The notes under the pieces were generated by a model, which ran no database searches, was not told where the DNA came from, and saw nothing but the letters and a program-made list of their open reading frames with translations. A DNA stretch of 64,000 nt, from IMG/VR virus record IMGVR_UViG_3300037255_000025, positions 64,001 through 128,000 of that record; one strand, 5' to 3'. Numbering within the stretch: position 1 is the stretch's first letter; every line of letters begins with the position of its first letter. The translations under genes were made by a program, and so were the position numbers. Below, in pieces: positions 11,087-50,512 of the stretch. Source of the DNA: a virus. Its lineage: Duplodnaviria > Caudoviricetes.

Positions 11087-13861
11087 ATGATGATCCGCCT
11101 AACCAACCGGGTCGCGACGTTGGTACGCGCGACGCCCGAGGAGCGCGACTACGTCCGCGGCTACCTGTCGATCCCTGACCCGCAGGCGTTCTTCAAGGGC
11201 AAGGAAGAGGCGACGTACAACCTCTACACCGAGGCCACGTCGTCGTTCTTCGGTGGGTTCCTGCCTGGGCTGCGCAAGGCCGCGGCGGCCGAGGGGTTCA
11301 CGGTCGAGATCGTGGACAACCGGGTCCAGCCGGTCGCGCGCGACCCCGCGGCGGACCTCGCGTGGCTCCGGGACTACCAACGCGAGGCCGTGGACGCCGT
11401 AGACAGCCATGTACATGGCATCATTTGGCAAATTACGGGATGTCTCGTCGGAGACACCTCCCTCGTCGTCAACCGGGGCGGAGCCGCTCGTCCAGTGGCG
11501 CTGAAGACCTTGGTGAGTCGTATGCGTGGGGAAGCTACGCGAAACCACGGCGGTAAGGGACGAACGTGCGCGTGGGACCTCTCGATCCCGACCTACACAC
11601 AATCGGTCGATCCCGAGGGGTATCTCCGCCTCAATCAAATCGTCAACGTCCACGATAACGGGGAGGCGGACGTCTTCTGCCTCAAGCTCACCGACGGGCG
11701 GTCGATCCGCGGAACGGCGGACCACCGCTTTCTTCAAGAAAGCGGCGAGTACACGCGGCTGGGTGACCTAGCCCCGGGCGACGAGGTCATGATCATCGAG
11801 TGGCCCAAGAGCCTGGCCAAGCTCGCGCATCACGACAAGGTCGACGACTACGAGCTGATCGACAAGATGTACAACCACCCGTATGCACAGTGGACGAACT
11901 GGTCGCGCACGGGGAAGCTCGTGCGCGTCCCGAAGCACCGACTCGTTGCCGAGGCCCGCCTGAACAACATCAACCTGTTCGAGCTTGTGGGCCGAATCAT
12001 CCTCAACGAGATTGAGGGCCTGACCTTCCTCGGGCCCGAGGTCCACGTCCACCACAAGGATGAAAACAGGCGAAACAACGACCCCGACAACTTGGAGGTC
12101 CTCCCGCGCAAGGAACACCTCGCGGAGCACGGACGCCGCGGTGGTTGGAAGAACGTGTCCGGTCGCGCGGTTCCCGCCGTCGTCGCGAGCATCACGCCCT
12201 GCGGCCGAGAGCCTGTGTACGACCTGACGATGGCGAGCCCGATGTCGAACTACGTGGCCAACGAGTTCGTCGTCCACAACAGCGGCAAATCGGACGTTGC
12301 GGTGGGACTCACGCGCGCGTTCCCCTGCCACTGGTTGTTCATGGCCCCGAGCCTCTCGTTGGTGAACAGCATGGCGGACCGCTTCGTGTTGCGGAACACC
12401 GAGCACGGAGTCGACCTGGGTGAGCCCGGCCGGATCGGCGAGGGTCGGTGGACCGAAGGCGCCCGCCTGACGTGCGCCACCTACCAATCGATCCAGCGCA
12501 GCCTGGCCAACCCGAGTACGCGGGCACTGCTCGAGCGCACCGGGGGCCTGGTCGTCGACGAGTGCTTCGTCGCGGGCACGCCTGTGGGTGACGTACCCAT
12601 CGAAGCCGTGCGCGTGGGGGACTACGTCCCCTCGTTCGACACGGACGCGGACCCTTGGGACCCGGTCCAGCGTCGTGTCCTGCGGACGATGCGGCGGCGG
12701 CCCGAAGTGCTCACCCGCGTCTGGCTATCGACCGGCGAGAGCTTCGTCTGCACGCCAAGCCATAAGTTCTGGACCCCATGTCGCGCAACAGAGCACCGTT
12801 GGACGCCCGCGGAGTCGCTCGAGGGCCACCTCCTGGTCGACGCCTACGCGGCGCCGGTAGGTGCGCCCCCGCTGGTCCGGGTCGATCGAGTACAGGCGCT
12901 TCACCCCGGGGCCGACGGAACCTTTGAGGGCGCGTGCCCCGACGGGTACGTGTACGACCTCGAAGTCGAAGGGACGCACACGTTCCTGGTGGGGTCCGGC
13001 ATCGTGGTCCATAACTGCCACCAGGTCCCCGCGCGCACGTTTCTGGAAGCGACGAGGGCCTGCAACGCCTACTGGCGTGTAGGGTTGTCGTCGACCCCGA
13101 TGGCCCGTGGCGACATGAAGTCGGCGCTCACGATGGGCGTCACGGGTCCGGTGATCCACCGCTACACGGCCCAGCAGGCCATCGCGGCCGGCGTGGTCTC
13201 GACCGCCCGGGTCCGGATGATCACTGTCAAGCACCCGAACCCCGCGGGCTACACGTACGCTGAGGTTTACCAGGAGCTGATCGCGCGGTCCGCACAGCGC
13301 AACGCGATGGCGGTCGCGGCGTTGAAGAAGGCGGCCAAGCCCGCCATCGCGTTCGTCAAGCACATCCAACACGGCCGGACGCTGCTCAAGCTGCTCCAGC
13401 AGGCGGGCATCTCGGCGGAGTTCGTCTGGGGCACGCACAAGGCCGCGGAGATCGAACGCCACATCAACGACCTGCGCCGCGGCGACACCGAGGTGATCGT
13501 GTCGAGTGCGGTCCTAAGGCAAGGAATTGATGTCCCGGAGCTGCGAACGGTCGTGAACTTGTCGGCGGGTCGGAGCGTCATCGACGTGCTCCAGAAGCTG
13601 GGCCGCGGGTCCCGGGTCGAGCGCGACGCCGCCGGCAACGCGGTCAAGACCTCGTTCGAGCTGGTGGACTTCTACGACATCTCGTCGGAGTGGCTCGAGG
13701 ACCACGCGAAGAAGCGGCGGCGCGCCTACCTCGGCGAGGGCTACTCGGTGGTAGTGGAAGGCGAGATCCCCCGGAAGCACGTGCGGGCCGACCCCGCGCG
13801 GGTGTCTTGGGGCCTGGCCGACGCGCCGGCAAACAAGCGCGAGATCGGTAAGGGGCCCTGA
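11087..13861 (+). CDS. SF2 DExH helicase (UvsW/Rad25-like) with two inteins
   Basis: LRDYQ; TG|SGKS; VVDE|CH; GLSSTP; QGIDVP; QKLGRGSR. Confidence 0.93.
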   Translation: MMIRLTNRVATLVRATPEERDYVRGYLSIPDPQAFFKGKEEATYNLYTEATSSFFGGFLPGLRKAAAAEGFTVEIVDNRVQPVARDPAADLAWLRDYQREAVDAVDSHVHGIIWQITGCLVGDTSLVVNRGGAARPVALKTLVSRMRGEATRNHGGKGRTCAWDLSIPTYTQSVDPEGYLRLNQIVNVHDNGEADVFCLKLTDGRSIRGTADHRFLQESGEYTRLGDLAPGDEVMIIEWPKSLAKLAHHDKVDDYELIDKMYNHPYAQWTNWSRTGKLVRVPKHRLVAEARLNNINLFELVGRIILNEIEGLTFLGPEVHVHHKDENRRNNDPDNLEVLPRKEHLAEHGRRGGWKNVSGRAVPAVVASITPCGREPVYDLTMASPMSNYVANEFVVHNSGKSDVAVGLTRAFPCHWLFMAPSLSLVNSMADRFVLRNTEHGVDLGEPGRIGEGRWTEGARLTCATYQSIQRSLANPSTRALLERTGGLVVDECFVAGTPVGDVPIEAVRVGDYVPSFDTDADPWDPVQRRVLRTMRRRPEVLTRVWLSTGESFVCTPSHKFWTPCRATEHRWTPAESLEGHLLVDAYAAPVGAPPLVRVDRVQALHPGADGTFEGACPDGYVYDLEVEGTHTFLVGSGIVVHNCHQVPARTFLEATRACNAYWRVGLSSTPMARGDMKSALTMGVTGPVIHRYTAQQAIAAGVVSTARVRMITVKHPNPAGYTYAEVYQELIARSAQRNAMAVAALKKAAKPAIAFVKHIQHGRTLLKLLQQAGISAEFVWGTHKAAEIERHINDLRRGDTEVIVSSAVLRQGIDVPELRTVVNLSAGRSVIDVLQKLGRGSRVERDAAGNAVKTSFELVDFYDISSEWLEDHAKKRRRAYLGEGYSVVVEGEIPRKHVRADPARVSWGLADAPANKREIGKGP
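11441..12280 (+). mobile_element. Intein (280 aa) with HNH endonuclease, in Walker A
   Basis: CLVGDT...TADHRF...HRLV...VHHKDENRRNNDPDNL...VVHN|S. Confidence 0.95.
12563..13015 (+). mobile_element. Mini-intein (151 aa) inside the DECH motif
   Basis: CFVAGTPV...TPSHKF...VYDLEVEGTHTF...VVHN|C. Confidence 0.95.
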
Positions 13862-18253: not shown

Positions 18254-18307
18254 CGCCGTGGGGTTGGTCGTCGCAAAGCCGGCCCGCTCGGGGTAAGGGT
18301 CGCGTCG

Positions 18308-19965: not shown

Positions 19966-20212
19966 GGTCGGCGACTACGTGCGCGATGTGACCTTGGATC
20001 GGAAGACAGGTAAGGCGCTTCGGACTGGCTGGATGCGGGCCATATTACGCGTGGGAGCGCGGACATTCTCAACCGAATGCGCGACGTACCTCCTGGACGG
20101 GCGTCGGTCCCCGTTGAGGGTGTACGGGCAAGGGGCGACAGTGCACGTTGCCCGTCGGGTGCCCAACCACGAGGTCGCGGCCGCGATGCTTGAGCACGAG
20201 GCAGCTCGATGA
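19958..20212 (+). CDS. Hypothetical protein
   Basis: Overlaps both neighbours; VEVGDYVRD... Confidence 0.55.
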   Translation: MVEVGDYVRDVTLDRKTGKALRTGWMRAILRVGARTFSTECATYLLDGRRSPLRVYGQGATVHVARRVPNHEVAAAMLEHEAAR

Positions 20213-21126
20213 GTACCCGATCGGGCGACCGTGCGGTGCTCGAGGCGGTCGCGGGGAAGCGCCCTGGGCCCAGCGGGTGGGTCCGGGGCAACTGCCCGTC
20301 GTGCGAGACCCGCGTGGGCAAGGTCGACCGGCGGCAGTGCCTCGGGCTCAACGTCTACACCGCGCGCTGGGTTTGTCATCGGTGTGGTGACGGTGGCCGT
20401 ATCGGCCGCATGCCCGACGAGTGGAGTGACCTGGAAGCCCCCGCGCCCCGCGCCGCCTCGGGCCCGAAGCTGCCCACGATGGACCCGCCCGACGGGTTTT
20501 TTGAGCTGTTCAACGGCGACGGTGCTCGTTCGCGTTCGCTCGACCCCGCGCGGCACTACCTCACGCAGGTCCGGGGGTTGTCGCCGGAGGTCCTGCGTGA
20601 GGCCCGCGTGGGCGCGTGCGTCGCCGGGACCTTTGCCGGCCGGGTGGTCGTGCCGGTGTTCGGGGTCGAGCCCGACGAGGACACGGGGGAGCTTCCCTGG
20701 GTTGGCTACAGCACGCGACCCTGGGTCAAGAACTACACGGGAATGGGCTACCGGTACCCGCGGGGCATGCCGTTGGCGACGCTGCTGTACAACGCCGCAG
20801 TGCTCCAGGTCGAGACCGACGAGCCCGTGCTGGTCGTCGAGGGCGTGTTCGATGCCCACGCGTTGTGGCCTGACGCGGTCGCGGCCCTCGGCGGGACCAA
20901 GGAGGGGCACCGGGAGCAGTTCATGTCGGCGCGCCGACCCGTCGTGTTGCTACCAGACGGCGACGCTTGGCATAAAAGTTGGCTTTTCTCAATGCAGCTC
21001 CGCTTCGAGGGGCAGCGCGCGGGGCTGGTGAAGCTCCCGCCCAAGCGGGACCCCGATGAGGTCCCGGTCGACGTGTTGCGCGCGGCCGCGCGCGAGTCAC
21101 TTGATCGAGACTGGGTTGCGGTGTGA
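20209..21126 (+). CDS. DNA primase (Zn finger + TOPRIM)
   Basis: NCPSC...CHRC, GRVVVPV, VVEGVFDA, LPDGDA, KRDPDE. Confidence 0.92.
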   Translation: MSTRSGDRAVLEAVAGKRPGPSGWVRGNCPSCETRVGKVDRRQCLGLNVYTARWVCHRCGDGGRIGRMPDEWSDLEAPAPRAASGPKLPTMDPPDGFFELFNGDGARSRSLDPARHYLTQVRGLSPEVLREARVGACVAGTFAGRVVVPVFGVEPDEDTGELPWVGYSTRPWVKNYTGMGYRYPRGMPLATLLYNAAVLQVETDEPVLVVEGVFDAHALWPDAVAALGGTKEGHREQFMSARRPVVLLPDGDAWHKSWLFSMQLRFEGQRAGLVKLPPKRDPDEVPVDVLRAAARESLDRDWVAV

Positions 21127-21295
21127 TCGATCGGGATCTCAACGCTGCCATCAACTTGAAAGATTTGGCCGGGAGTTCCCCGGTGTCAGCCTGTCGCCCT
21201 GGAGGCTCTGGTGCTGCTCTTACGAGCGGTACGAAACCTCTGGTTGGGCAGGAACCGAACCAGGTATCAGCTTGCTGAACCTACCTCGGAGGACG
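21123..21295 (+). ncRNA. Orphan TnpB omegaRNA scaffold / tnpB 3'-end remnant
   Basis: 21123-21261 matches 49833-49971 at 133/139 nt, then a different hairpin and the same CGGAG(A/G)ACG terminus. Confidence 0.8.
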
Positions 21296-21341
21296 TAAGG
21301 GTCGCGGCGGGACGAAACGAACGAAAGGGTCGAGGTACGAG

Positions 21342-22331
21342 ATGCGGACGATTACGTGGACGGGTACGGCGGTGATCTTGGGTGTGGAGCGGCCCGTGGC
21401 GTTCCAGGGGCTTGGTTTGGCGCCCGGCGTGGCGGGAGGTACGTCGCCGTTGATGCTGGCCATCGGTGGGCTGTCGTCCGAAGAGGGTGCGGCGATCGTC
21501 GCCGCACTCGAGAAGATCCAGCCCGCGGAAGGGACGAAGACCTACAACTTCCGCGTCGAGATCCCTGGCGCCAAGCTGGACCAGACGCCCGTCATCCCCG
21601 GCGACGCACACAGGTCGTGGTGGGACGAGACGCCGAAGCCCGCCCCGGCTGCGGCGAAGCCGGCCGCGCCCGCTGCGACGACTCCGCCGGTCAAGACCGC
21701 GGTCCCCGCGACGGCCGCGGCGCAGCAGGCTGCACCCAAGCCGGCACCCGCGGCCGTCGCCCAGGCGCGCCCCGCCTCGACGCTAGCGGCCGTCGCTACG
21801 GCTGCGCCTCTCCCTGCCGCGAGGCCCGCGGCGGCTCCTGCGCCCGTGACAGTAAACCGGCCTGCGCCTGCTGCGAAGCCTGCCGCGGCGAAGCCTGCAC
21901 CCGCGGCAGCGGCTCCGCCGGCCGCGACTCGCCCGAAGCCCGCCGCGGCCCCCGCGCCGGTCGCGGCAATCGACCCGGCCGGACCCGACGAGGACGAAGA
22001 GGAGGCGCCCGAGGAACCCGATGGGACTGAGCCCGCGGCGGCGTCGGTTGACGACGATCCGGTGGGCTTGTCCTCGACGCCGATCCCGCCAGAGCTATTG
22101 GCGGCGAACGCAATGCTCCGGGCGGTGGTGGTCTGGGTCATTCAGCACATGATCGACACGACGGGTGAGCACCCCACGGAGGACCAGATCATCGCGGGCA
22201 TCGAGGCCCTCCGGGGCAAGGTCCCGCTGGTGACGCGGACGGTTGCCGCGGACCTCGCGCGCCGTGTCCCGCTGGTTCTTCAGGTCATCGGCAACCTGGG
22301 CCCGGCGCCCCGCGCGGACGCCGCGCAGTAA
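21342..22331 (+). CDS. Ala/Pro-rich hypothetical protein
   Basis: GAGG RBS; PAAA repeats; acidic patch. Confidence 0.75.
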   Translation: MRTITWTGTAVILGVERPVAFQGLGLAPGVAGGTSPLMLAIGGLSSEEGAAIVAALEKIQPAEGTKTYNFRVEIPGAKLDQTPVIPGDAHRSWWDETPKPAPAAAKPAAPAATTPPVKTAVPATAAAQQAAPKPAPAAVAQARPASTLAAVATAAPLPAARPAAAPAPVTVNRPAPAAKPAAAKPAPAAAAPPAATRPKPAAAPAPVAAIDPAGPDEDEEEAPEEPDGTEPAAASVDDDPVGLSSTPIPPELLAANAMLRAVVVWVIQHMIDTTGEHPTEDQIIAGIEALRGKVPLVTRTVAADLARRVPLVLQVIGNLGPAPRADAAQ

Positions 22332-22336
22332 CGCCC

Positions 22337-25300
22337 ATGCGCGACCTCCCGCTGTATTCTGCCTTGCCGGTCGCGGCCATCGAGGCGGAGCCGTCGCTCG
22401 ACCCCGACGACCGGTGCACCCGGTGCGAGCTGTCGGGGCTCCGCCGGGCGACGGATCCGGAGACCGGGGAGGAGCGGGTTGAGCCTCGCGATGCGAAGCG
22501 GCCCGGCCGCGTTTGTTTGGGTTCGGACGGGGGCAAGAACCCCCGTCCGGGCGGTGTCTTGGTCGTGGTCGATACGGTGACGCAGGACGACGACCGGCCC
22601 CACCCGGCCGGTCGCGTGTTGTCTGGCGTTGCTGGCCACATGGTCCGCCCGTTGGTGTCGAGGTGGTATCCCGGGCCCGTGACGTACGCGGCGGCGACGC
22701 GGTGCCGGCCCTTTCACAAGCTCGCGGTCGAGCACGTGGAGGCCTGTCGCGGCTACATGGCCCGGACGCTGGAGGATGTCCGGCCGGAGCGCATTATCGC
22801 GATGGGGTCGCTCGCGGCGCGCTCGATCCTGGGTCGGTCGGTCCAGCCGAACAACGTCCGCACCGGGTACGCGTACTTGCTCGCCGGGCGCTACCGCGAC
22901 CGACCCATCCCGGTCTACTTCGTCGGAGCGCCCAAGGGCGCGGTAGACAACCGGTTCCTGAAGACCCTGCTTGAACAGGACATCGAGTACGCGTTGACGC
23001 GGCCGCCGCCGCCGTTGCCACCCCTCGACGCGGTCGTGCGCGTGGTCGAGACCGCGGAGGACGCCGAGGCCGCGGTGGCGGAGATGAGCGCCGCGCCCTG
23101 GTGCTCGGTAGACGTGGAGAGCGCGGGGCAGTTGTTTGACCCGTCGTTCCGGCTTCTGTGCGTGACCGCGACCCCGGAGCGAGAAGACGAAGCCTTGTCG
23201 GAGGATACGTGGACGTGGGACGAGGCCGCGTTGGCGAACCCGGCGACGCGCGCGCCCCTGGCGCGTTACCTTGCGGACCCTCGCGCACGAAAGTGCGGCG
23301 CGAATGTCAAATTCGACCGGTCGGCGCTTGTGACGAATGGGTTCGCGGTCGCGGGGGTCGACGGCGACGTGCGGCTGTGGCGCAAGTTGCTCGAGGCCGA
23401 GGCGCCCGCCGACCTCGCGACGATGGTTGAGTTGGTCGGGATGGGCGGCATGAAGGACGAGCAGAAGTTGGCCGAGGCCCCGGCGGTCGACCGGATCACG
23501 TTCGGCGTCCACACGGAGCGCCGGTTGGCGAAGGCGAAGGAAGCCGACAAGAAGGTTGGCAAGCTGTCCGCCAAGGCCGCGGACGGGCTCGCGGCGCTCG
23601 CCGACCTCGACGCGCGTCTCCCGCACATCGCCGCGCTCGTTCGGGACGCGGGCGTTGAGTCGGGCGCTTGGGCCAAGGCGGTCGTACCGGACGACACGCT
23701 GCTCGCGTACAACGGTCGAGACGGTGTGGGGACGCGGCGTCTGTTGGCGCGGCTTCCGCGTGACCTAGCGATCAATCCACAGATCGACCGTATCCGGCGG
23801 CTCGTCGTAGACCGTGCCGCGCGCGCTGTGGCTCGGCTTGAGGAGTGGGGGGTCCCGGTCGACATGAACGCGCTCCGAGCCTTCGACGCGCACTGCACGC
23901 TATCGTTGCGCGTGACGCGTGAGAGGCTCGATGCGGAGGTGGGCGTGGATCTCAACCCCGGGTCGCCGCAGCAGCTAGCCGAGTTGTTGTATCGAAAGCT
24001 TGGGTTCAAGCCGACCAAGCTCACCGCGGGCGGACAGCCATCGGTCGACGAAGAGGTCTTGGAGAAGCTGCGCGGTAAGCACCCGGTGGTGGACCTCGTG
24101 CTGGATCACCGAAAGTACGCAGGACTGCGCTCTAAGTACGCAGGAGGCATGATCCCGCATGTCCGACCTGACGGCCGCGTTCATTGCTCGATTCTACTCG
24201 ATGGAGCAGCGTCGGGTCGTGCGTCTATCAAGGATCCCCCGCTACAGCAGATCCCTAGCAATAAGCGCGACCCTTTGTACGGCAAGATGGCGCGCGACGT
24301 CTTCGCGCCTGTGTTTGGTTTCCTTTTCCTACAGGCCGACTACAAGCAAGCAGAGTTCCGGGTGGCCGCGATGTTGTCTCAGGATCCTGTCATGATGGCT
24401 GACATCGCGGCGGGGTTGGACCCACATCTGGCGACGGCGAAGTTCATCTCGCGCGTGGCTTGGGGTATCTCGCCCGACGAGGTCACGGACGAGCACCGAT
24501 CCCAGACAAAGTCTGTTGTCTTCGGCGTGTTGTACGGGAAAACAGCGGGGTCTCTTGCCGCGATGTTCGGTTGTTCGAGAGAACAGGCGCAGAAGATCGT
24601 GGATGCCGTAATGGGCCGCTACAAGGTCCTGGCCCGGTGGATCAAGACGAACCTCCGAGAGGCTCAGAATACTGGGTATGTCTGGACTCAGTGGGCAGGA
24701 GAGCCCGCGCGTCGTCGGCCGCTGTTCGACCTTGGCCTGCGCGGCGATCAGAACGAGGGGCGGCGAGTTCACGCGGCTAACGCCGCCACCAACTGCCTCG
24801 ACGCCGAGACGGAGGCGCTTACGCGTCGCGGTTGGGTCCGCGGGTTTGATCTCCGTCCCGACGACGTCATCTTGACCAAAAACGCTGCGACCGGCGCGTT
24901 GGAATGGGAGACCATGACCGACCTTCGCCTCTTTCCCGACTATGAGGGCCCCGTTGTTGAATTCAAGTCGAGGAGCTTCAGCGCGGTTTCCACCCCCAAC
25001 CACCGATGGCTCGTTGAGACCAAGTCGCGCCAGCCTGGGCGTCGAACGTGCGAGCGGACTACTCGTACGCTCTCTCCGTGGGGAGATGACCGCATCCACC
25101 GGACGGGCGAGTACCGCCCCGACGTCGACAGCGTCTTGACGCCGGACGAAGCGGAGCTTCTTGGGTGGTTCGTCACGGACGGTTCGATCAGGAAGGCCCA
25201 TACGGTCGCTGGAAAGCAGAAGAACCGCAGGTATTCCACGACGAGCGCGAGGGCGCTCATCCACCAGAGCGGGACCGCGAACGCGGCTAACTGCTCCCGC

Positions 25301-26104
25301 ATCGACGCGCTTCTAGCTCGCGCGGCTCCCAGCGAAACTACTCGTAGGTCGCTGAAGAATGGGATGGTCGTGTGGAACCTCGGTCGTCGCCTATCGACGC
25401 TTCTTATTGGGCTATGCCCAACAAGGACTCTCATGTTGGGGGCCATGCTCCGCCTCAATCGGCCCGCGCTTGACCGGCTGCACGAGGCAATGGTCCTTGG
25501 CGACCGGCATAAGCGGGGCATCTGCACGGGTCGGCGCGAGCAGGCCGAGGCGTTTCAGATCCTCTGTACACTCACCGGCGCGCACGCGTCCGTTACGTAC
25601 CGAGACATGAGCCGATACAAGCTAAAGAAGTACCCAAGCATGGGGAACATCCCCGTGACCGAGGGGTGCTGGTTGTCGGACACGTTGAACCGGAAGACTG
25701 TCCAGGTCACTGCGGGCCAGCGCCGCGAGGTCGTGGCGCGCGTCCCGGTGTGGTGCCCTGTCGTGCCTAACACGTTCTTCGTCGCGCGCCGGAGTGACCA
25801 CGTGTTCATCACGGGAAACTCGCCCATTCAAGGAGGGGCGAACGAGTTCCAGCTCGCGAGCCTCGTAGAGGCCGTCGAGTGGATCGAGGTTGAGGGCATC
25901 GAGCGGGACGTGAAGCTCCTGCTGCCCGTTCACGATTCGCTCCTGTTCGAGGTAAGAGCCGATATGGTGAACGACGTTGCCAGGAAAGTGCGTCAGATCA
26001 TGACGAGCCACGATAGCGGTGGCGTCGCGATGGATGTTGACTGTGAAGTTGGGCCCGCGTGGGGCTCGCTCTCGAAGTGGAAGGACCCCGATGTTGTCGC
26101 GTGA
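22337..26104 (+). CDS. polA: Family A DNA polymerase with N-terminal UDG-like domain, 3'-5' exonuclease and an intein
   Basis: CTRCEL...TRCRP...ACR (UDG family 4-like); VDVES, NVKFD, YNGRD exonuclease motifs; ADYKQAEFR, RSQTKSVVFGVLYG, N|SPIQG, VHDSL. Confidence 0.95.
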   Translation: MRDLPLYSALPVAAIEAEPSLDPDDRCTRCELSGLRRATDPETGEERVEPRDAKRPGRVCLGSDGGKNPRPGGVLVVVDTVTQDDDRPHPAGRVLSGVAGHMVRPLVSRWYPGPVTYAAATRCRPFHKLAVEHVEACRGYMARTLEDVRPERIIAMGSLAARSILGRSVQPNNVRTGYAYLLAGRYRDRPIPVYFVGAPKGAVDNRFLKTLLEQDIEYALTRPPPPLPPLDAVVRVVETAEDAEAAVAEMSAAPWCSVDVESAGQLFDPSFRLLCVTATPEREDEALSEDTWTWDEAALANPATRAPLARYLADPRARKCGANVKFDRSALVTNGFAVAGVDGDVRLWRKLLEAEAPADLATMVELVGMGGMKDEQKLAEAPAVDRITFGVHTERRLAKAKEADKKVGKLSAKAADGLAALADLDARLPHIAALVRDAGVESGAWAKAVVPDDTLLAYNGRDGVGTRRLLARLPRDLAINPQIDRIRRLVVDRAARAVARLEEWGVPVDMNALRAFDAHCTLSLRVTRERLDAEVGVDLNPGSPQQLAELLYRKLGFKPTKLTAGGQPSVDEEVLEKLRGKHPVVDLVLDHRKYAGLRSKYAGGMIPHVRPDGRVHCSILLDGAASGRASIKDPPLQQIPSNKRDPLYGKMARDVFAPVFGFLFLQADYKQAEFRVAAMLSQDPVMMADIAAGLDPHLATAKFISRVAWGISPDEVTDEHRSQTKSVVFGVLYGKTAGSLAAMFGCSREQAQKIVDAVMGRYKVLARWIKTNLREAQNTGYVWTQWAGEPARRRPLFDLGLRGDQNEGRRVHAANAATNCLDAETEALTRRGWVRGFDLRPDDVILTKNAATGALEWETMTDLRLFPDYEGPVVEFKSRSFSAVSTPNHRWLVETKSRQPGRRTCERTTRTLSPWGDDRIHRTGEYRPDVDSVLTPDEAELLGWFVTDGSIRKAHTVAGKQKNRRYSTTSARALIHQSGTANAANCSRIDALLARAAPSETTRRSLKNGMVVWNLGRRLSTLLIGLCPTRTLMLGAMLRLNRPALDRLHEAMVLGDRHKRGICTGRREQAEAFQILCTLTGAHASVTYRDMSRYKLKKYPSMGNIPVTEGCWLSDTLNRKTVQVTAGQRREVVARVPVWCPVVPNTFFVARRSDHVFITGNSPIQGGANEFQLASLVEAVEWIEVEGIERDVKLLLPVHDSLLFEVRADMVNDVARKVRQIMTSHDSGGVAMDVDCEVGPAWGSLSKWKDPDVVA
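24794..25819 (+). mobile_element. Intein (342 aa) with degenerate LAGLIDADG endonuclease in PolA
   Basis: CLDAETE...TPNHRW...LLGWFVTDGS...VWCPVVPNTFFVARR...ITGN|S. Confidence 0.93.
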
Positions 26105-43983: not shown

Positions 43984-44235
43984 GCGCCAAGGGCCTTTCG
44001 TCGTTCGGGTCGAGACCTGGGAGGAAGACAAGCCCGTGGCCTTCTGCCGTTGTCACCCGCGTGCTCGCGGCGAGGTCGCCTGACGCGTCACCCGTCGTTG
44101 GCCGCGGCGTTCGCGGTCGTTGGCCAAGCAAACGTTCTGGCCACCCGATACGCCCGAAAGTACGGGTGGACCCGCACCTCGCGCGTTGTCCCGCTCGCTG
44201 ATGCCCTGTTGGAGGTTGAGGCGGGCCTTGTCTGA
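43976..44235 (+). pseudogene. 'ADELLEREA' family member split by an apparent frameshift
   Basis: GTG 43976 frame (PFVVRVE...) stops at 44083; family tail VVPLADALLEVEA is in another frame. Confidence 0.55.
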
Positions 44236-44500
44236 GTTCTTGATCCGGTTACACAGAGACGGAGTCTGGCCGTACTACTGGACCCAGTATTACTTGGGTT
44301 GGGTGACAGAGCCCTCGCGGGCGACCCCCTACTTGGAGGAGGAAGCGCGCGAGGAACTCAAGCGCGTGATCCACTACTTGGAGGAGGACGCGCGCGAGGC
44401 ACTCAAGCGCGTGATCCGTCGGACAAGTCAGCCGAGTCTCGACGTCGTTCCGTTGTCCGACGCGATGTTGGACCGGGCCGCGCGCTATCCCAACCTCTAG
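44228..44500 (+). CDS. 'ADELLEREA' family small protein with a 45-bp internal duplication
   Basis: FLIRL...WVTEPSRATPY...VVPLSDAMLDRAAR. Confidence 0.72.
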   Translation: MSEFLIRLHRDGVWPYYWTQYYLGWVTEPSRATPYLEEEAREELKRVIHYLEEDAREALKRVIRRTSQPSLDVVPLSDAMLDRAARYPNL

Positions 44501-44742
44501 CCCAACGCCTCCTCTTCGAAGTGGCGCAGGCCGTGGAGGGACCTCGGCGCGCGCAACGCGGCGCTCGGGCGCGAGCGTGCGACCGCCGCCCAGACGGCCT
44601 CCGCGGCTTCCTCAGCCGCCGACAGGATCGGCGGCGGGTACTCGAGCGCGCTCAGGGGGGCCGTGACCCGCGTACGCCTCGCCGGGTACGGGGCCGCGTA
44701 GGGGTTGCAGATTTTGGCAGACTGGGGCACAAAGCTCATCAC
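44497..44742 (-). CDS. Possible small hypothetical protein
   Basis: GAGG upstream on the - strand; convergent overlap with 44500. Confidence 0.4.
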   Translation of the reverse strand: MMSFVPQSAKICNPYAAPYPARRTRVTAPLSALEYPPPILSAAEEAAEAVWAAVARSRPSAALRAPRSLHGLRHFEEEALG

Positions 44743-44767
44743 GTTGACCTCTTGCTCAGGTTGACCA

Positions 44768-44800
44768 GGCCCTCGGCGTTACCCGCGCCGGGGGCTTTCG
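44768..44800 (+). terminator. Hairpin, possible intrinsic terminator
   Basis: GGCCCTCGGCG-ttacccg-CGCCGGGGGCT followed by a short T tract. Confidence 0.4.
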
Positions 44801-44989
44801 TTCGTCTGAGAAGCTAAAACCGGGCCGGAGTCGCGGCCCTGGTAACTTAAGGCTTTTCTAGCAATTCTGCACGGCCGGTAGACGCAAAAACGCATCACAC
44901 GTCCTACAATTGCGCATCGGGGCGATCAACCCCGGGCGTAAGGGCGGCGCGGGTTCCGAAGCGTCGCCCGCGGGGGTAAGGATCCGGGC

Positions 44990-45238
44990 GTGGGCGAACA
45001 GCATGTCGGCGCGTGGATCGTGAAAGTAGTCGGCGGACACGTAGACGTGTCCGCGGCGTGGGTGGTGCGCATCGGCGCGATGACAGGGGCCAGCCGCGTC
45101 ACGACCGAGCCCGGGAAGGCGGTGTTCACCACCCGAGCCACGGCGCTCGACTGGATGAAGGCAAACCACGCGTCCGCGGGGTGCGCGGTTCCGCTGGCTG
45201 ATGAGCTGCTTGAGTGCGAGGCCCGACGGACGCCATGA
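44990..45238 (+). CDS. 'ADELLEREA' family small protein
   Basis: AWIVK...VFTTRATA...AVPLADELLECEARR. Confidence 0.78.
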   Translation: MGEQHVGAWIVKVVGGHVDVSAAWVVRIGAMTGASRVTTEPGKAVFTTRATALDWMKANHASAGCAVPLADELLECEARRTP

Positions 45239-45498
45239 AGCAAGCGTGGATCCTGCGGGAGTTGCCTGACGAGCCTGACGTGGCGCTCTCGTCGGTCTGG
45301 CGGAGACCTACGCTCTACGTAAGCGTGTACGGTGACGATTGCGCGGTCTTCGCCCTTTCGGCAGCAAAGGTGTTCCGGTCGGCAGCTTGCGCAGAGCGTC
45401 ACCGTCGTCGTCTTTTGATGCCCGATCGGTGGACCGTGGTTCCGTTCGCGGACGCGATGCTCGATTACGAGGCGGCGCGCCATGAGGCGGCCCGATGA
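45235..45498 (+). CDS. 'ADELLEREA' family small protein
   Basis: AWILR...AKVFRSAACA...VVPFADAMLDYEAAR. Confidence 0.78.
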   Translation: MKQAWILRELPDEPDVALSSVWRRPTLYVSVYGDDCAVFALSAAKVFRSAACAERHRRRLLMPDRWTVVPFADAMLDYEAARHEAAR

Positions 45499-45758
45499 GC
45501 CGCGATGCTGGCTGGGTCCTGAAGTCGCGGATGACGGCGGAGTACTTTGTGGCTGGGGTTCGGACGGGAGGTACTTGGTACACCGGGGTTCGGACGGGAG
45601 GTGCTTGGTACACCGTCGCGCCCTACTGTTCGATGGGCCGCGTGTTCTGGACGGAAGCCGACGCCCAGGAGGCCCGCGGTCGCCTCGACGACCCGGAGAC
45701 GTGGATCGTGGTCCCGTTGGCGGATGAACTGCTGGAACAGGAGGCCCGACGCCGATGA
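45495..45758 (+). CDS. 'ADELLEREA' family small protein with a 30-bp duplication
   Basis: WVLK...VFWTEADA...WIVVPLADELLEQEARR. Confidence 0.8.
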   Translation: MSRDAGWVLKSRMTAEYFVAGVRTGGTWYTGVRTGGAWYTVAPYCSMGRVFWTEADAQEARGRLDDPETWIVVPLADELLEQEARRR

Positions 45759-46045
45759 CCTGGGTCTTGGTCTGTAGACGCCCCGGCGCGCAACGCGGCG
45801 CGCAACGCGGCGCGCAACGCGGCGCGCAACGCGGCGATACTTATTACGCCCGGGACCTGCGTTCGCACGGTGAAGACTGGCCATACACGCTCATGCTCGA
45901 CTTCGCCCAGGAGTTCTCGACCGAGCAAGCCGCGCTCGCGCATCGGATAGAGCACCCCAGCGATGATCACGAGCTTGTGGTGGCGGGTCCTTGGATCGTG
46001 GTTCCGCTGGCGGATGAGCTGCTGGAACGGGAGGCGCGGCGCTGA
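45755..46045 (+). CDS. 'ADELLEREA' family small protein with (GAQR)4 repeat
   Basis: WVLV...AQEFSTEQAA...WIVVPLADELLEREARR. Confidence 0.8.
   Translation: MTWVLVCRRPGAQRGAQRGAQRGAQRGDTYYARDLRSHGEDWPYTLMLDFAQEFSTEQAALAHRIEHPSDDHELVVAGPWIVVPLADELLEREARR
45785..45836. repeat. 12-bp tandem repeat (GGCGCGCAACGC)x4
   Basis: Read directly from the sequence. Confidence 0.95.
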
Positions 46046-48435: not shown

Positions 48436-48768
48436 GTGCCCTGGATCATCAAGCTCACGGAGCTGGCCACGACGCACTGGCCCTCCCCGGGACGGACGGC
48501 GTACCTGCGGGCGTGGCCCCAAGGCCCTGTTGGGTGGCGCGCCGTCCAGATGACGCACATCGTCGCGACCGACGGCGCGGCCGTTTGGGTGCCAGAGCTG
48601 AGCCTGGCGAAGGTGTTCGCCACCGAGGAGATCGCGCGCGCCGCGGCGGACCGATGCCGGTCCAAGATCGGGGAGGCGCGGTTTGTGCGGCTTGAGTTCG
48701 CGGACTGGGCGGGGGAACTGTTGGAGCGAGAAGCCGCCCACGCTGGGGGTAAGGGACCGCGAACGTGA
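48436..48768 (+). CDS. 'ADELLEREA' family small protein
   Basis: VPWIIK...AKVFATEEIA...ADWAGELLEREAA. Confidence 0.78.
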   Translation: MPWIIKLTELATTHWPSPGRTAYLRAWPQGPVGWRAVQMTHIVATDGAAVWVPELSLAKVFATEEIARAAADRCRSKIGEARFVRLEFADWAGELLEREAAHAGGKGPRT

Positions 48769-49988
48769 AGATCCTCCGAGCGTACAAGACCGAGCTGGAC
48801 CCCACGGTCTCCCAGACCGAGCAGCTCCTACAGCACGCCGGTTGCGCTCGCTGGGCTTACAACTGGGGTCTCCGAAGGAAGATCGAGTCCTACGAAGCTA
48901 CGGGCAAGAGTCCGTCCTGGGTGGATCTCAACCGCGAGCTGAACGTGATCAAGAAGCTCCCCAAGGAAGCCGGCGGGGTCCCGTGGATGTACGAGTCCTC
49001 GAAGTGTGCCCCGCAGGAAGCGCTCCGAAACCTTGATCGAGCCTTTGAGGGCTTCTTTCGTCGGTGTAAGAGCGGCTCGAAGCGGAAAGGCTTCCCTCGG
49101 TTCAAGTCTCGTAAGCGGGGCATCGGTAGCTTCAAGTTCAGCGGAACGATTCATGTAGAAGAGCGACGGGTTCAGCTTCCCCGTCTCGGGAAGATCAAGC
49201 TCAAGCAACGCGGGTACCTCCCGACCTCGGGGGTGAAGATCCTCTCAGCTTCGGTCTCGGAGCGAGCGGGGCGGTGGTTCGTTTCGATCCAGGTTGAACA
49301 GGGGCTACCGGATCCCGCACCCAAGCCCACGTCGGTTCTCGGGATCGACGTTGGGATCAAGAATCTCGGGGTCACCAGCGAAGGCGAGGTCTTCTCCAAC
49401 CCGAAGGCGCTCCTGGCAGCGCAGAAGCTTCTCCGAGCGCGTCAGAAGTCTCTCGCGAGAAAGACCAAAGGATCGAACAACAGGAGGAAAACGGCCGCTA
49501 GGGTCGCCCGTCTACACGCTAGGATCTCCAATATCCGGAGGGATTCGATCCACAAGATGACGACTGCGATCACCAAGCAGGCGTCGGTTCTCGTGATCGA
49601 GGATCTCAACGTCCTTGGGATGCTGAGAAACCACTGTCTCGCCCGGTCTCTGTCGGATGCCTCCCTCGGGGAGATCCGCCGGCAGCTCACCTACAAGAGC
49701 AAGTGGCGCGGGGTCGAGCTTCGGGTAGCGGACCGCTTCTATCCAAGCAGCAAGAGGTGCTCGGGGTGTGGAGCGGTCAAGGTCTCGCTCTCGTTGGCCG
49801 AGAGGGTCTACCGATGCGAGCTTTGTGGTCTCGTGATCGATCGAGACCTGAACGCTGCCCTCAACTTGAAAGATTTGGCCGGGAGTTCCCCGGTGCAAGC
49901 CTGTCGCCCTGGAGGCTCTGGTGCTGCTCTTACGAGCGGTACGAAACCTCTGGTTGGGCAGGAACCGAACCGGGAGGCTTCCTCGTGA
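48765..49988 (+). CDS. tnpB: TnpB RNA-guided endonuclease (IS605/IS607 OrfB), no adjacent transposase
   Basis: RAYKTELDPT, ARWAYN, GFPRFK, GIDVG (RuvC-I), IEDLN (II), CSGC/CELC, DRDLNAA (III). Confidence 0.96.
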   Translation: MKILRAYKTELDPTVSQTEQLLQHAGCARWAYNWGLRRKIESYEATGKSPSWVDLNRELNVIKKLPKEAGGVPWMYESSKCAPQEALRNLDRAFEGFFRRCKSGSKRKGFPRFKSRKRGIGSFKFSGTIHVEERRVQLPRLGKIKLKQRGYLPTSGVKILSASVSERAGRWFVSIQVEQGLPDPAPKPTSVLGIDVGIKNLGVTSEGEVFSNPKALLAAQKLLRARQKSLARKTKGSNNRRKTAARVARLHARISNIRRDSIHKMTTAITKQASVLVIEDLNVLGMLRNHCLARSLSDASLGEIRRQLTYKSKWRGVELRVADRFYPSSKRCSGCGAVKVSLSLAERVYRCELCGLVIDRDLNAALNLKDLAGSSPVQACRPGGSGAALTSGTKPLVGQEPNREASS

Positions 49989-50009
49989 AGCAAACCGGCC
50001 CGGAGAACG
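49833..50009 (+). ncRNA. TnpB omegaRNA scaffold overlapping the tnpB 3' end
   Basis: Expected position for a TnpB omegaRNA; conserved with the 21123-21295 copy, ending CGGAGAACG. Confidence 0.7.
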
Positions 50010-50512
50010 TATTCGGTCCGTTCTTTCAAGTCGTCGACTGCGCGGCCGATGCCCCGCCGGCCGCGGCGGTCTCGCCCATCGACTTCCTCAACGCCCAGCT
50101 CACCCAAGTGACGCAGGAGCTCGACGAGGCGCTGGAGAAGCTCGAACGGATGCCGTGCGGTCACGCGCGGTTCGAGCAGCACCGAGAGATGCACGCGAGC
50201 GCTACGCCGTACTGCACGGTCTGCCGGATCAACCACGACTACCGGGTACTCGAAGAAGAGGAAGCGCGTCTCGACCTAGCGCTCGAGAAGACCCAACAGG
50301 AACTCGATCGTGTCCGCACCGCGCTGCAAGAGGCCTCCGTGGTTGCGACGAAGGCCACCGATAGGCTTCTGGATTCCCTGCCCGGTCGGGTCCTTCGCCC
50401 GTTGCGCGAGGCGGTCGATGCGCTGCGCAAGTCCGGCGACATCGAGGGCGTGATGAACGCTCAGCGCGACATCATCGATGCAGCGCTTGTGCTGTTCCCA
50501 GAAGCAACCTAG
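49985..50512 (+). CDS. Coiled-coil hypothetical protein
   Basis: GTGA overlap; MPCGH...YCTVC; start uncertain. Confidence 0.6.
   Translation: MKQTGPENVFGPFFQVVDCAADAPPAAAVSPIDFLNAQLTQVTQELDEALEKLERMPCGHARFEQHREMHASATPYCTVCRINHDYRVLEEEEARLDLALEKTQQELDRVRTALQEASVVATKATDRLLDSLPGRVLRPLREAVDALRKSGDIEGVMNAQRDIIDAALVLFPEAT

Follow-up and report, generated by a model that had tools for sequence, protein, structure and literature searches.

The gap between the DNA primase gene of this phage and the gene that follows it was found to be occupied by the 3' 174 nt of a tnpB-omegaRNA unit (21123..21296, + strand), from the RuvC DRD codons onward, and this orphan is probably the decayed right-end remnant of a tnpA-less, IS607-derived tnpB-omegaRNA cassette whose native guide has been retained. 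The orphan is also likely to have no dedicated regulatory role and to carry no sign of upkeep by selection. The stretch of DNA analysed, referred to as the window, is 64 kb long and corresponds to bases 64001-128000 of a 169,748-bp IMG/VR record, the ends of which overlap by 210 nt with two mismatches; positions are those of the window unless the genome is named.

The orphan right end and its scaffold

The features of the orphan (copy B) and of its immediate surroundings are the following.

20209..21126, + strand: DNA primase gene (PHROG 47 DNA primase, E 1.6e-14)
21169..21183, + strand: first scaffold stem-loop (CCGGG, loop AGUUC, CCCGG), helix 1 of the family model
21262..21282, + strand: type-2 (variant) terminal hairpin, AGGT-ATCAGCTTGCTGA-ACCT, common to remnants E and F
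21293..21296, + strand: scaffold end ACGT, the same at 6/6 right ends of the genome and ACGG in relatives
21297..21312, + strand: predicted guide of the orphan omegaRNA, AAGGGTCGCGGCGGGA, the first 16 nt past the model boundary
21297..21341, + strand: native leader of the downstream gene and original target DNA, aligned with positions 2011-2067 of relative L041
21342..22331, + strand: downstream gene from the ORF list, 329 aa, Ala/Pro-rich
22337-26104: DNA polymerase gene, next after the 329-aa gene

Positions 21123-21264 are 95% identical over 142 nt to 49833-49974 of the intact copy A, the orphan starting within tnpB codon 354 and its left end being absent. Past this repeat the hairpins of both copies differ (AGGT..ACCT vs CCGG..CCGG) and their termini are alike, GGAG(A/G)ACGT. 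Compared with the other copies, the 142 nt hold a single private substitution, which is compensated in the hairpin. The variant hairpin, seen in copies B, E and F and in no intact copy of the genome, carries the stop codon that the parent tnpB would use (an in-frame TGA), implying that the parent of these three remnants was a working variant; a compensated pair of its stem, AGGT/ACCT in the orphan, reads GGGT/ACCC in remnant E. On the upstream side, the primase stop TGA (21124-21126) lies inside the repeat, the last residues and the stop being found at the deletion joint with the orphan, and the primase, compared with its counterparts in relatives L015 and L016, is 3-5 residues shorter at the C-terminus, with a tail unlike that of L041.

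An assembly artefact was ruled out by the identical sequence in Logan contig L046, which comes from a different run. The exact 329-aa protein is also present in other assemblies behind the same orphan, and the spacing from primase to next gene is likewise 216 nt in an ENA contig with the exact primase. No match to the 329-aa protein was obtained in Pfam or PHROG, and exact-pattern scans of viral and metagenome contigs with the 3' flank of the orphan gave none either. In the contig with the exact primase in SRR8556310, the methyltransferase-primase block is preceded by an HNH endonuclease gene (PF01844), which is a second homing-like nuclease type in the same replication module.

Rfam at gathering thresholds gave no match across the 64-kb window. 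A covariance model, R1, was built from 15 tnpB 3' regions of foreign phage contigs (46-73% aa), with none from this genome, and the orphan matched it at 21129-21296 with 90.5 bits (E 7.7e-23) over model positions 1-194. This is the top score among the copies of this genome, the intact copies A, C and D reaching 89.4, 89.3 and 83.4 bits respectively and each covering all 194 positions as well, while remnants E and F obtained no R1 score with the filters off too. Among the 18 members of the family, in an alignment fitted to the model, 91.4% of cells are paired and compensatory changes are seen in 19/24 pairs; 0/500 shuffles came as high and slid controls fell far below too. For helix 1, 97.8% of cells are paired and four of its five pairs show compensatory changes (18 sequences).

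The initial annotation had proposed a covariance model as the way to place the boundary between scaffold and guide, and the R1 match does stop at 21296 after a complete scaffold. The shared terminus had been read as ACG-TA; the shared end was recovered but the boundary was not, given that the scaffold stops at ACGT (21296) according to both R1 and the empty sites of relatives. With the scaffold ending at this ACGT, the GT of which is a dinucleotide also present in the target, the guide runs from 21297 to 21312. The orphan is, as predicted from the model, an omegaRNA with a complete and well preserved scaffold. The scaffolds of the three intact copies are 91-96% identical to it over the shared 142 nt and depart from it mainly in the hairpin that is variable across the family. 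In the predicted minimum-energy fold, part of the orphan guide pairs with the scaffold segment GCCUGUCGCC, a pairing which could possibly hinder function.

Copies in the genome, empty sites in relatives and family assignment

The initial annotation had assumed a single intact TnpB, an assumption that did not hold: the genome has three intact close paralogues (A, C and D), three distant tnpBs and three remnants (B, E and F), with E and F lying outside the window. Both of the latter have the orphan's hairpin variant.

48747..48750, + strand: inferred TAM GGGT, directly 5' of the left end of copy A
48751..50010, + strand: intact copy A (left end 48751-48764, 14 nt; tnpB 48765-49988, 407 aa; scaffold 49839-50010)
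50011..50028, + strand: guide of copy A, ATTCGGTCCGTTCTTTCA, with a perfect 18-nt match in L042
Genome 159718-160938: intact copy C (92% aa)
Wrapping the record ends: intact copy D (about 88-92% aa)
Genome 149667-149760, − strand: remnant E (locus L005), about 92 nt of right end kept
Genome 12366-12557, − strand: mini-element F (locus L006), MITE/PATE-like

The TnpB of copy A has the Pfam domains OrfB_IS605, Cas12f1-like TNB and HTH_OrfB and was aligned with ISDra2 TnpB structures at E 9e-64, the D/E/D motifs GIDVG, IEDLN and DRDLN being aligned and present. The three distant tnpBs share 30-39% aa, and two of them adjoin Y1 tnpA genes in IS200/IS605-type elements at genome 19597-21097 and 34484-35988, each composed of a Y1 tnpA and a distant tnpB (30-36% aa to A); the third, at genome 27541-28716, has a weak omegaRNA-model match of 31 bits.

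Mini-element F consists of a left end with about 100 nt of tnpB, a GCTT microhomology joint and the last 28 nt of the right end, and is identical in the independent Logan contig L045. The lengths of right end kept by the remnants, 174 nt in B, about 92 nt in E and 28 nt in F, look like graded decay at the sequence level. Remnant E shows a compensated stem (GCGC/GCGU), is without helix 1 and is followed by TGCAAG, not by the leader motif described below. Look-ups with P0121, P0122 and the gene upstream of F gave no other contig.

At the left end, GGGT stands ahead of AAGG in copies A, C and F, while D is preceded by AGGT. The left end of D (genome 463-536, − strand) measures about 75 nt, begins with AAGGGATGCCC and contains an internal GGT|AGGGTCGAAG like the short left end of C. 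Left ends are thus heterogeneous and the copies mosaic, F having a leader like that of A and a coding start like that of C. A left boundary at the GTG start codon was ruled out by the empty site L043, which places it at GGGT|AAGGG. A small ORF (MSNCATCDAAGPFGIYHPGCPRV|FGPFFQVVDC...) that is continuous in L042 is split here (genome 537-602, − strand; window 50011-50512, + strand), with its 5' half adjoining the left end of copy D and its 3' half after the right end of copy A, which, from the sequence, points to a recombination or inversion between two inverted tnpB copies or else to an assembly chimera at the repeats. The idea that the ORFs flanking copy A fuse in frame on excision was rejected, L042 placing the 5' half of the true ORF beside copy D. 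Elsewhere in the window, two repeats in a coding region are unrelated to the orphan: five spaced copies of a 45-nt repeat at 44184-46041 and a 12-nt tandem repeat (GCGCGCAACGCG) at 45769-45840.

Relatives without the insertions were recovered for three sites. In contig L041 (JGI metagenome; primase 94% aa, 93% nt) the site of the orphan is free of any insertion and is part of an 88-nt intergenic region, ...GAAC-N14-GT|AAGAGGGTCGGGGCGG..., followed by the same leader and gene as the window from 21297 onward, its positions 2011-2067 coming directly after GGGGCGT. Contig L042 (QGNH01001869.1, 94-98% nt) has an uninterrupted ORF, ...CCGCGGGT|ATTCGGTCCGTTCTTTCA, in which GGGT precedes 18 nt that match the copy A guide perfectly, and L043, from the JGI sample shared with L041, reads ...CGCCGGGT|AAGGGGTAGCGCGTG, where GGGT precedes 15 nt that match the copy C guide. 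The three empty-site sequences (CGGGT|ATTCGG, CCGGGT|AAGGGG and GGGCGT|AAGAGG) place the insertion point at GT|A, in most cases as GGGT|AAGG within the leader motif of the phage, and give a TAM of about GGGT; the element's own left end starts with AAGGG. All three testable sites (A, C and the orphan) are polymorphic among close relatives, and the intact copies A and C stand, by these alignments, in a classical homing configuration towards related phages.

As had been claimed, the guide corresponds to the 3' flank and starts with the phage leader motif, this flank being homologous to the leader at the L041 empty site. The orphan guide and the L041 allele are nevertheless mismatched from position 4, and GCGT stands where GGGT is expected, which could be divergence or a resistant allele. 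The empty site that had been sought was found in L041, but not as the exact sequence of GGG followed by the guide, and the proposal that the orphan directs cutting of the unoccupied locus drew no support from this single empty allele.

The assignment to IS607, also made in the initial annotation together with a G-rich TAM, was borne out by the relatives and by the GGGT inferred at the empty sites. In the closest relatives, L017 (73% aa) and L019, a serine recombinase gene lies directly upstream of tnpB, which identifies the family as IS607-type, and the insertions show no target duplication, a dinucleotide shared by target and right end, and a G-rich TAM, as is usual for IS607-like elements. 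In this phage itself no match to Resolvase (PF00239) was found in the whole 169,748-bp genome. The Y1 TnpA and subterminal hairpins of the IS200/IS605 type were not found with the close copies: both Y1 tnpA genes lie only beside distant tnpBs (genome 19.6 and 35.6 kb), and A and C have just 14-17 nt ahead of the start codon, so that there is no space for a left-end hairpin. No catalytic loss of the TldR type was seen, GIDVG, IEDLN and DRDLN being retained, and of the two ends kept by PATE- or MITE-like elements the orphan lacks the left one while element F retains both. The scaffolds of relatives all terminate in GAACGG. In phage GenBank records the sole tnpB was a distant one, from a 485-kb uncultured phage, and a scan of genome contigs with the helix-1 sequence gave just two distant bacterial relatives, both ending in GAACGG, with no clue to the host.

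Probable truncation of the cassette, the leader motif and other explanations

The history that fits these observations best would start with insertion of the cassette into the leader motif before the gene at 21342, between the GT and the AAG of that motif. A later deletion, at a joint with 2-3 nt of microhomology that reads GCGGT|GTGATCG, would have taken the last primase codons, the native stop and about 50 nt of intergenic DNA, together with the left end and tnpB codons 1-353, and would have left the full omegaRNA scaffold and native guide on the same strand as the replication genes. The simpler alternative already offered in the initial annotation, that of a decayed IS in a GGG|TAAGG site, thus agrees best with the L041 empty site, the deletion and the two sister remnants, and the graded series of 174, 92 and 28 nt indicates deletion end points that are random relative to the RNA. 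Neither promoter nor terminator was predicted between the primase and the next gene. Since it shares the strand of the replication genes and no terminator is predicted in between, the orphan is probably transcribed with them, and as catalytically intact paralogous TnpBs are present, loading in trans would be possible and binding of its RNA by the TnpBs of A, C and D is plausible on sequence grounds. Its sole natural target would be the unoccupied, matching allele of the junction in related phages (homing or retention).

Some observations sit less easily with decay. The scaffold has no private mutation outside the compensated hairpin pair and has the top R1 score, so that decay of the RNA itself is not visible; recent truncation, gene conversion or selection could also account for an intact scaffold. 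Independent assemblies contain the orphan in identical form, and the predicted pairing of its guide with GCCUGUCGCC also has to be accommodated.

It is possible, though unlikely, that selection keeps the orphan as a cheap extra guide, with which a paralogous TnpB cuts co-infecting relatives that are without the primase–polymerase insertion, and in this way drives the inheritance of both the orphan and the DNA around it, a form of non-autonomous homing or marker exclusion. The complete, top-scoring scaffold just mentioned would be expected of such a guide, as would three intact TnpBs with scaffolds 91-96% identical to it over 142 nt, intact copies in true homing configuration with polymorphic insertions, and stability across samples. 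However, the sole empty allele found is unmatched past position 3 and has GCGT, not GGGT; the sister remnants E and F are cut within the scaffold, so that deletion end points look random; and the deletion of the orphan ends 46 nt upstream of the first structured element, at no RNA boundary.

The remaining explanations involve the leader motif of the phage. This motif is phage-wide and bipartite, with AA at -16/-15 (29 and 25 of 38 sites, respectively) followed by GGTAAGG; its spacer is GC-rich and often palindromic, and GGGTAAGG(G/A)nCC follows, GGGTAAGG being counted 26 times where 6.4 would be expected. The usual distance from the motif to the start codon is 7-8 nt; a distance of about 20 nt with an intervening GGAGG is seen in some cases (examples of the motif in the window are at 13847, 18292, 48748, 56117 and 62677). 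The motif may act as a promoter of leaderless mRNAs or as a ribosome-binding signal. The landing of cassettes in this motif explains the AAGGG at the start of the B, C and D guides. At both validated leader sites (L041/orphan and L043/copy C), the right end gives AA(A) at the same distance to GTAAGG as the native upstream half. Insertion thereby seems to restore a motif to the displaced gene, the original one being taken over by tnpB, a geometry that is backed by the empty sites and whose function is putative.

Deletions may accordingly remove tnpB but not a right-end tip that serves the downstream motif, and the remnant could persist because its last about 30 nt are now the upstream half of the leader or promoter-like motif of the downstream gene (GAAC-N14-GTAAG), the rest being a passenger. 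This was judged decidedly improbable. It is consistent with the bipartite layout of AA at -16/-15 and GGTAAGG; with GAAC-N14-GTAAG being found in both the empty L041 site and the occupied site, in the latter with a GAAC from the right end; with the same arrangement in copy C vs L043; and with the presence of the right-end tip in 3/3 remnants, F retaining 28 nt only. Against it, E is not followed by the motif, 30 nt are accounted for and not 174 nt, and the role of the motif as promoter or ribosome-binding signal is itself putative.

A broader reading, equally doubtful, would see the tnpA-less TnpB cassettes of the phage lineage as a family in which the joined ends imitate the bipartite leader motif, such that insertion at GGGT|AAGG gives tnpB a native leader and rebuilds that of the displaced gene, and in which nuclease-less guides stay active via paralogous TnpBs, serving in the replication module as independent guides for homing or exclusion when relatives co-infect.

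The regulation of phage promoters put forward in the initial annotation, in which the orphan guide would steer TnpB by a short seed to the phage's own leader or promoter motifs and tune transcription without cutting, is highly improbable. The TAAGG sites given for it at 13849, 18294, 48750, 56119 and 62675 all exist, and GGGT followed by AAGG is present in every leader motif. A leader match of the guide is found at the following feature.

18291..18304, + strand: methyltransferase gene leader, in which GGGT precedes 10 nt that match the start of the orphan guide (18295-18304)

A 10-nt guide has been described to let active ISDge10 TnpB bind without cutting (PMC13507860), which counts in favour of such tuning. 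The 11-nt match claimed for the methyltransferase leader is real (10 nt of guide plus T) but not special: among 61 GTAAGG sites, 15 have at least 10 nt in common with another site and 6 have at least 12, which makes the secondary matches of the orphan guide ordinary. The longest of these, 12 nt at genome 136210, was rejected as a promoter target, being inside a minus-strand ORF. Moreover, the guide is the native insertion flank according to the empty site of L041, and the TnpB nuclease residues are kept, unlike in known repressor derivatives. The seed matches are at the chance level of the motif family, and the truncated cassette remains the preferred explanation.

Comparison with known systems

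TnpB homing has been shown in the laboratory; to our knowledge, there are few reports of natural populations in which occupied and empty alleles coexist. The phage lineage described here has three intact cassettes and three remnants, and close relatives provide the matching empty sites, two of which are fitted exactly by guides. It offers a natural system in which to ask if RNA-guided nucleases behave like phage homing endonucleases, and if a guide without a nuclease gene can ride on paralogous TnpBs. The orphan by itself is an ordinary decay product unless its use in trans is demonstrated.

The closest known system is the IS607 TnpB-omegaRNA of CboIStron (Zedaveinyte et al., bioRxiv 10.1101/2023.11.20.567912), with which the present copies share a RuvC-intact TnpB, an omegaRNA overlapping the 3' end of the gene, a guide taken from the 3' flank and a G-rich TAM. 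The published IS607 TnpB has the TAM TGGG, a scaffold end UCGG and a shared GG core, and tells self from non-self at position -3; likewise, scaffold end and TAM share the crossover dinucleotide here and differ at -3 (TGGG/UCGG in IS607; GGGT/ACGT here), and the guides of copies A and C match empty sites in a homing arrangement. Unlike IS607, however, the phage is without a serine recombinase, the left ends of A and C are just 14-17 nt long, the shared dinucleotide is GT and not GG, and the orphan has neither tnpB nor left end.

Protein-less elements often encode omegaRNAs that need TnpB in trans (Meers et al., bioRxiv 10.1101/2023.03.14.532601), and like the PATE-type protein-less derivatives of IS200/IS605 the orphan omegaRNA has no nuclease gene of its own and would need TnpB from elsewhere. 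PATEs have both ends and are mobilisable, whereas the orphan has no left end and cannot transpose; F (genome 12366-12557) is the better analogue. TldR repressors (Wiegand et al., PMC10705468) also use a guide RNA derived from an omegaRNA scaffold, and their targets are promoter regions. They are nuclease-dead, in contrast to the D/E/D residues kept here, and the guide of the orphan is an unmodified insertion flank with no conserved promoter target seen.

Finally, the cassettes resemble phage homing endonucleases (T4 seg/mob; the PhiPA3 intron endonuclease, PMC11620839) in being selfish, in lying between or within genes and in being present or absent among close relatives; with those endonucleases the unoccupied allele is cut during co-infection. 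Targeting here differs in depending on an RNA guide and a TAM, and for this reason a guide can persist on its own after its nuclease gene is lost, provided that paralogues are still present.
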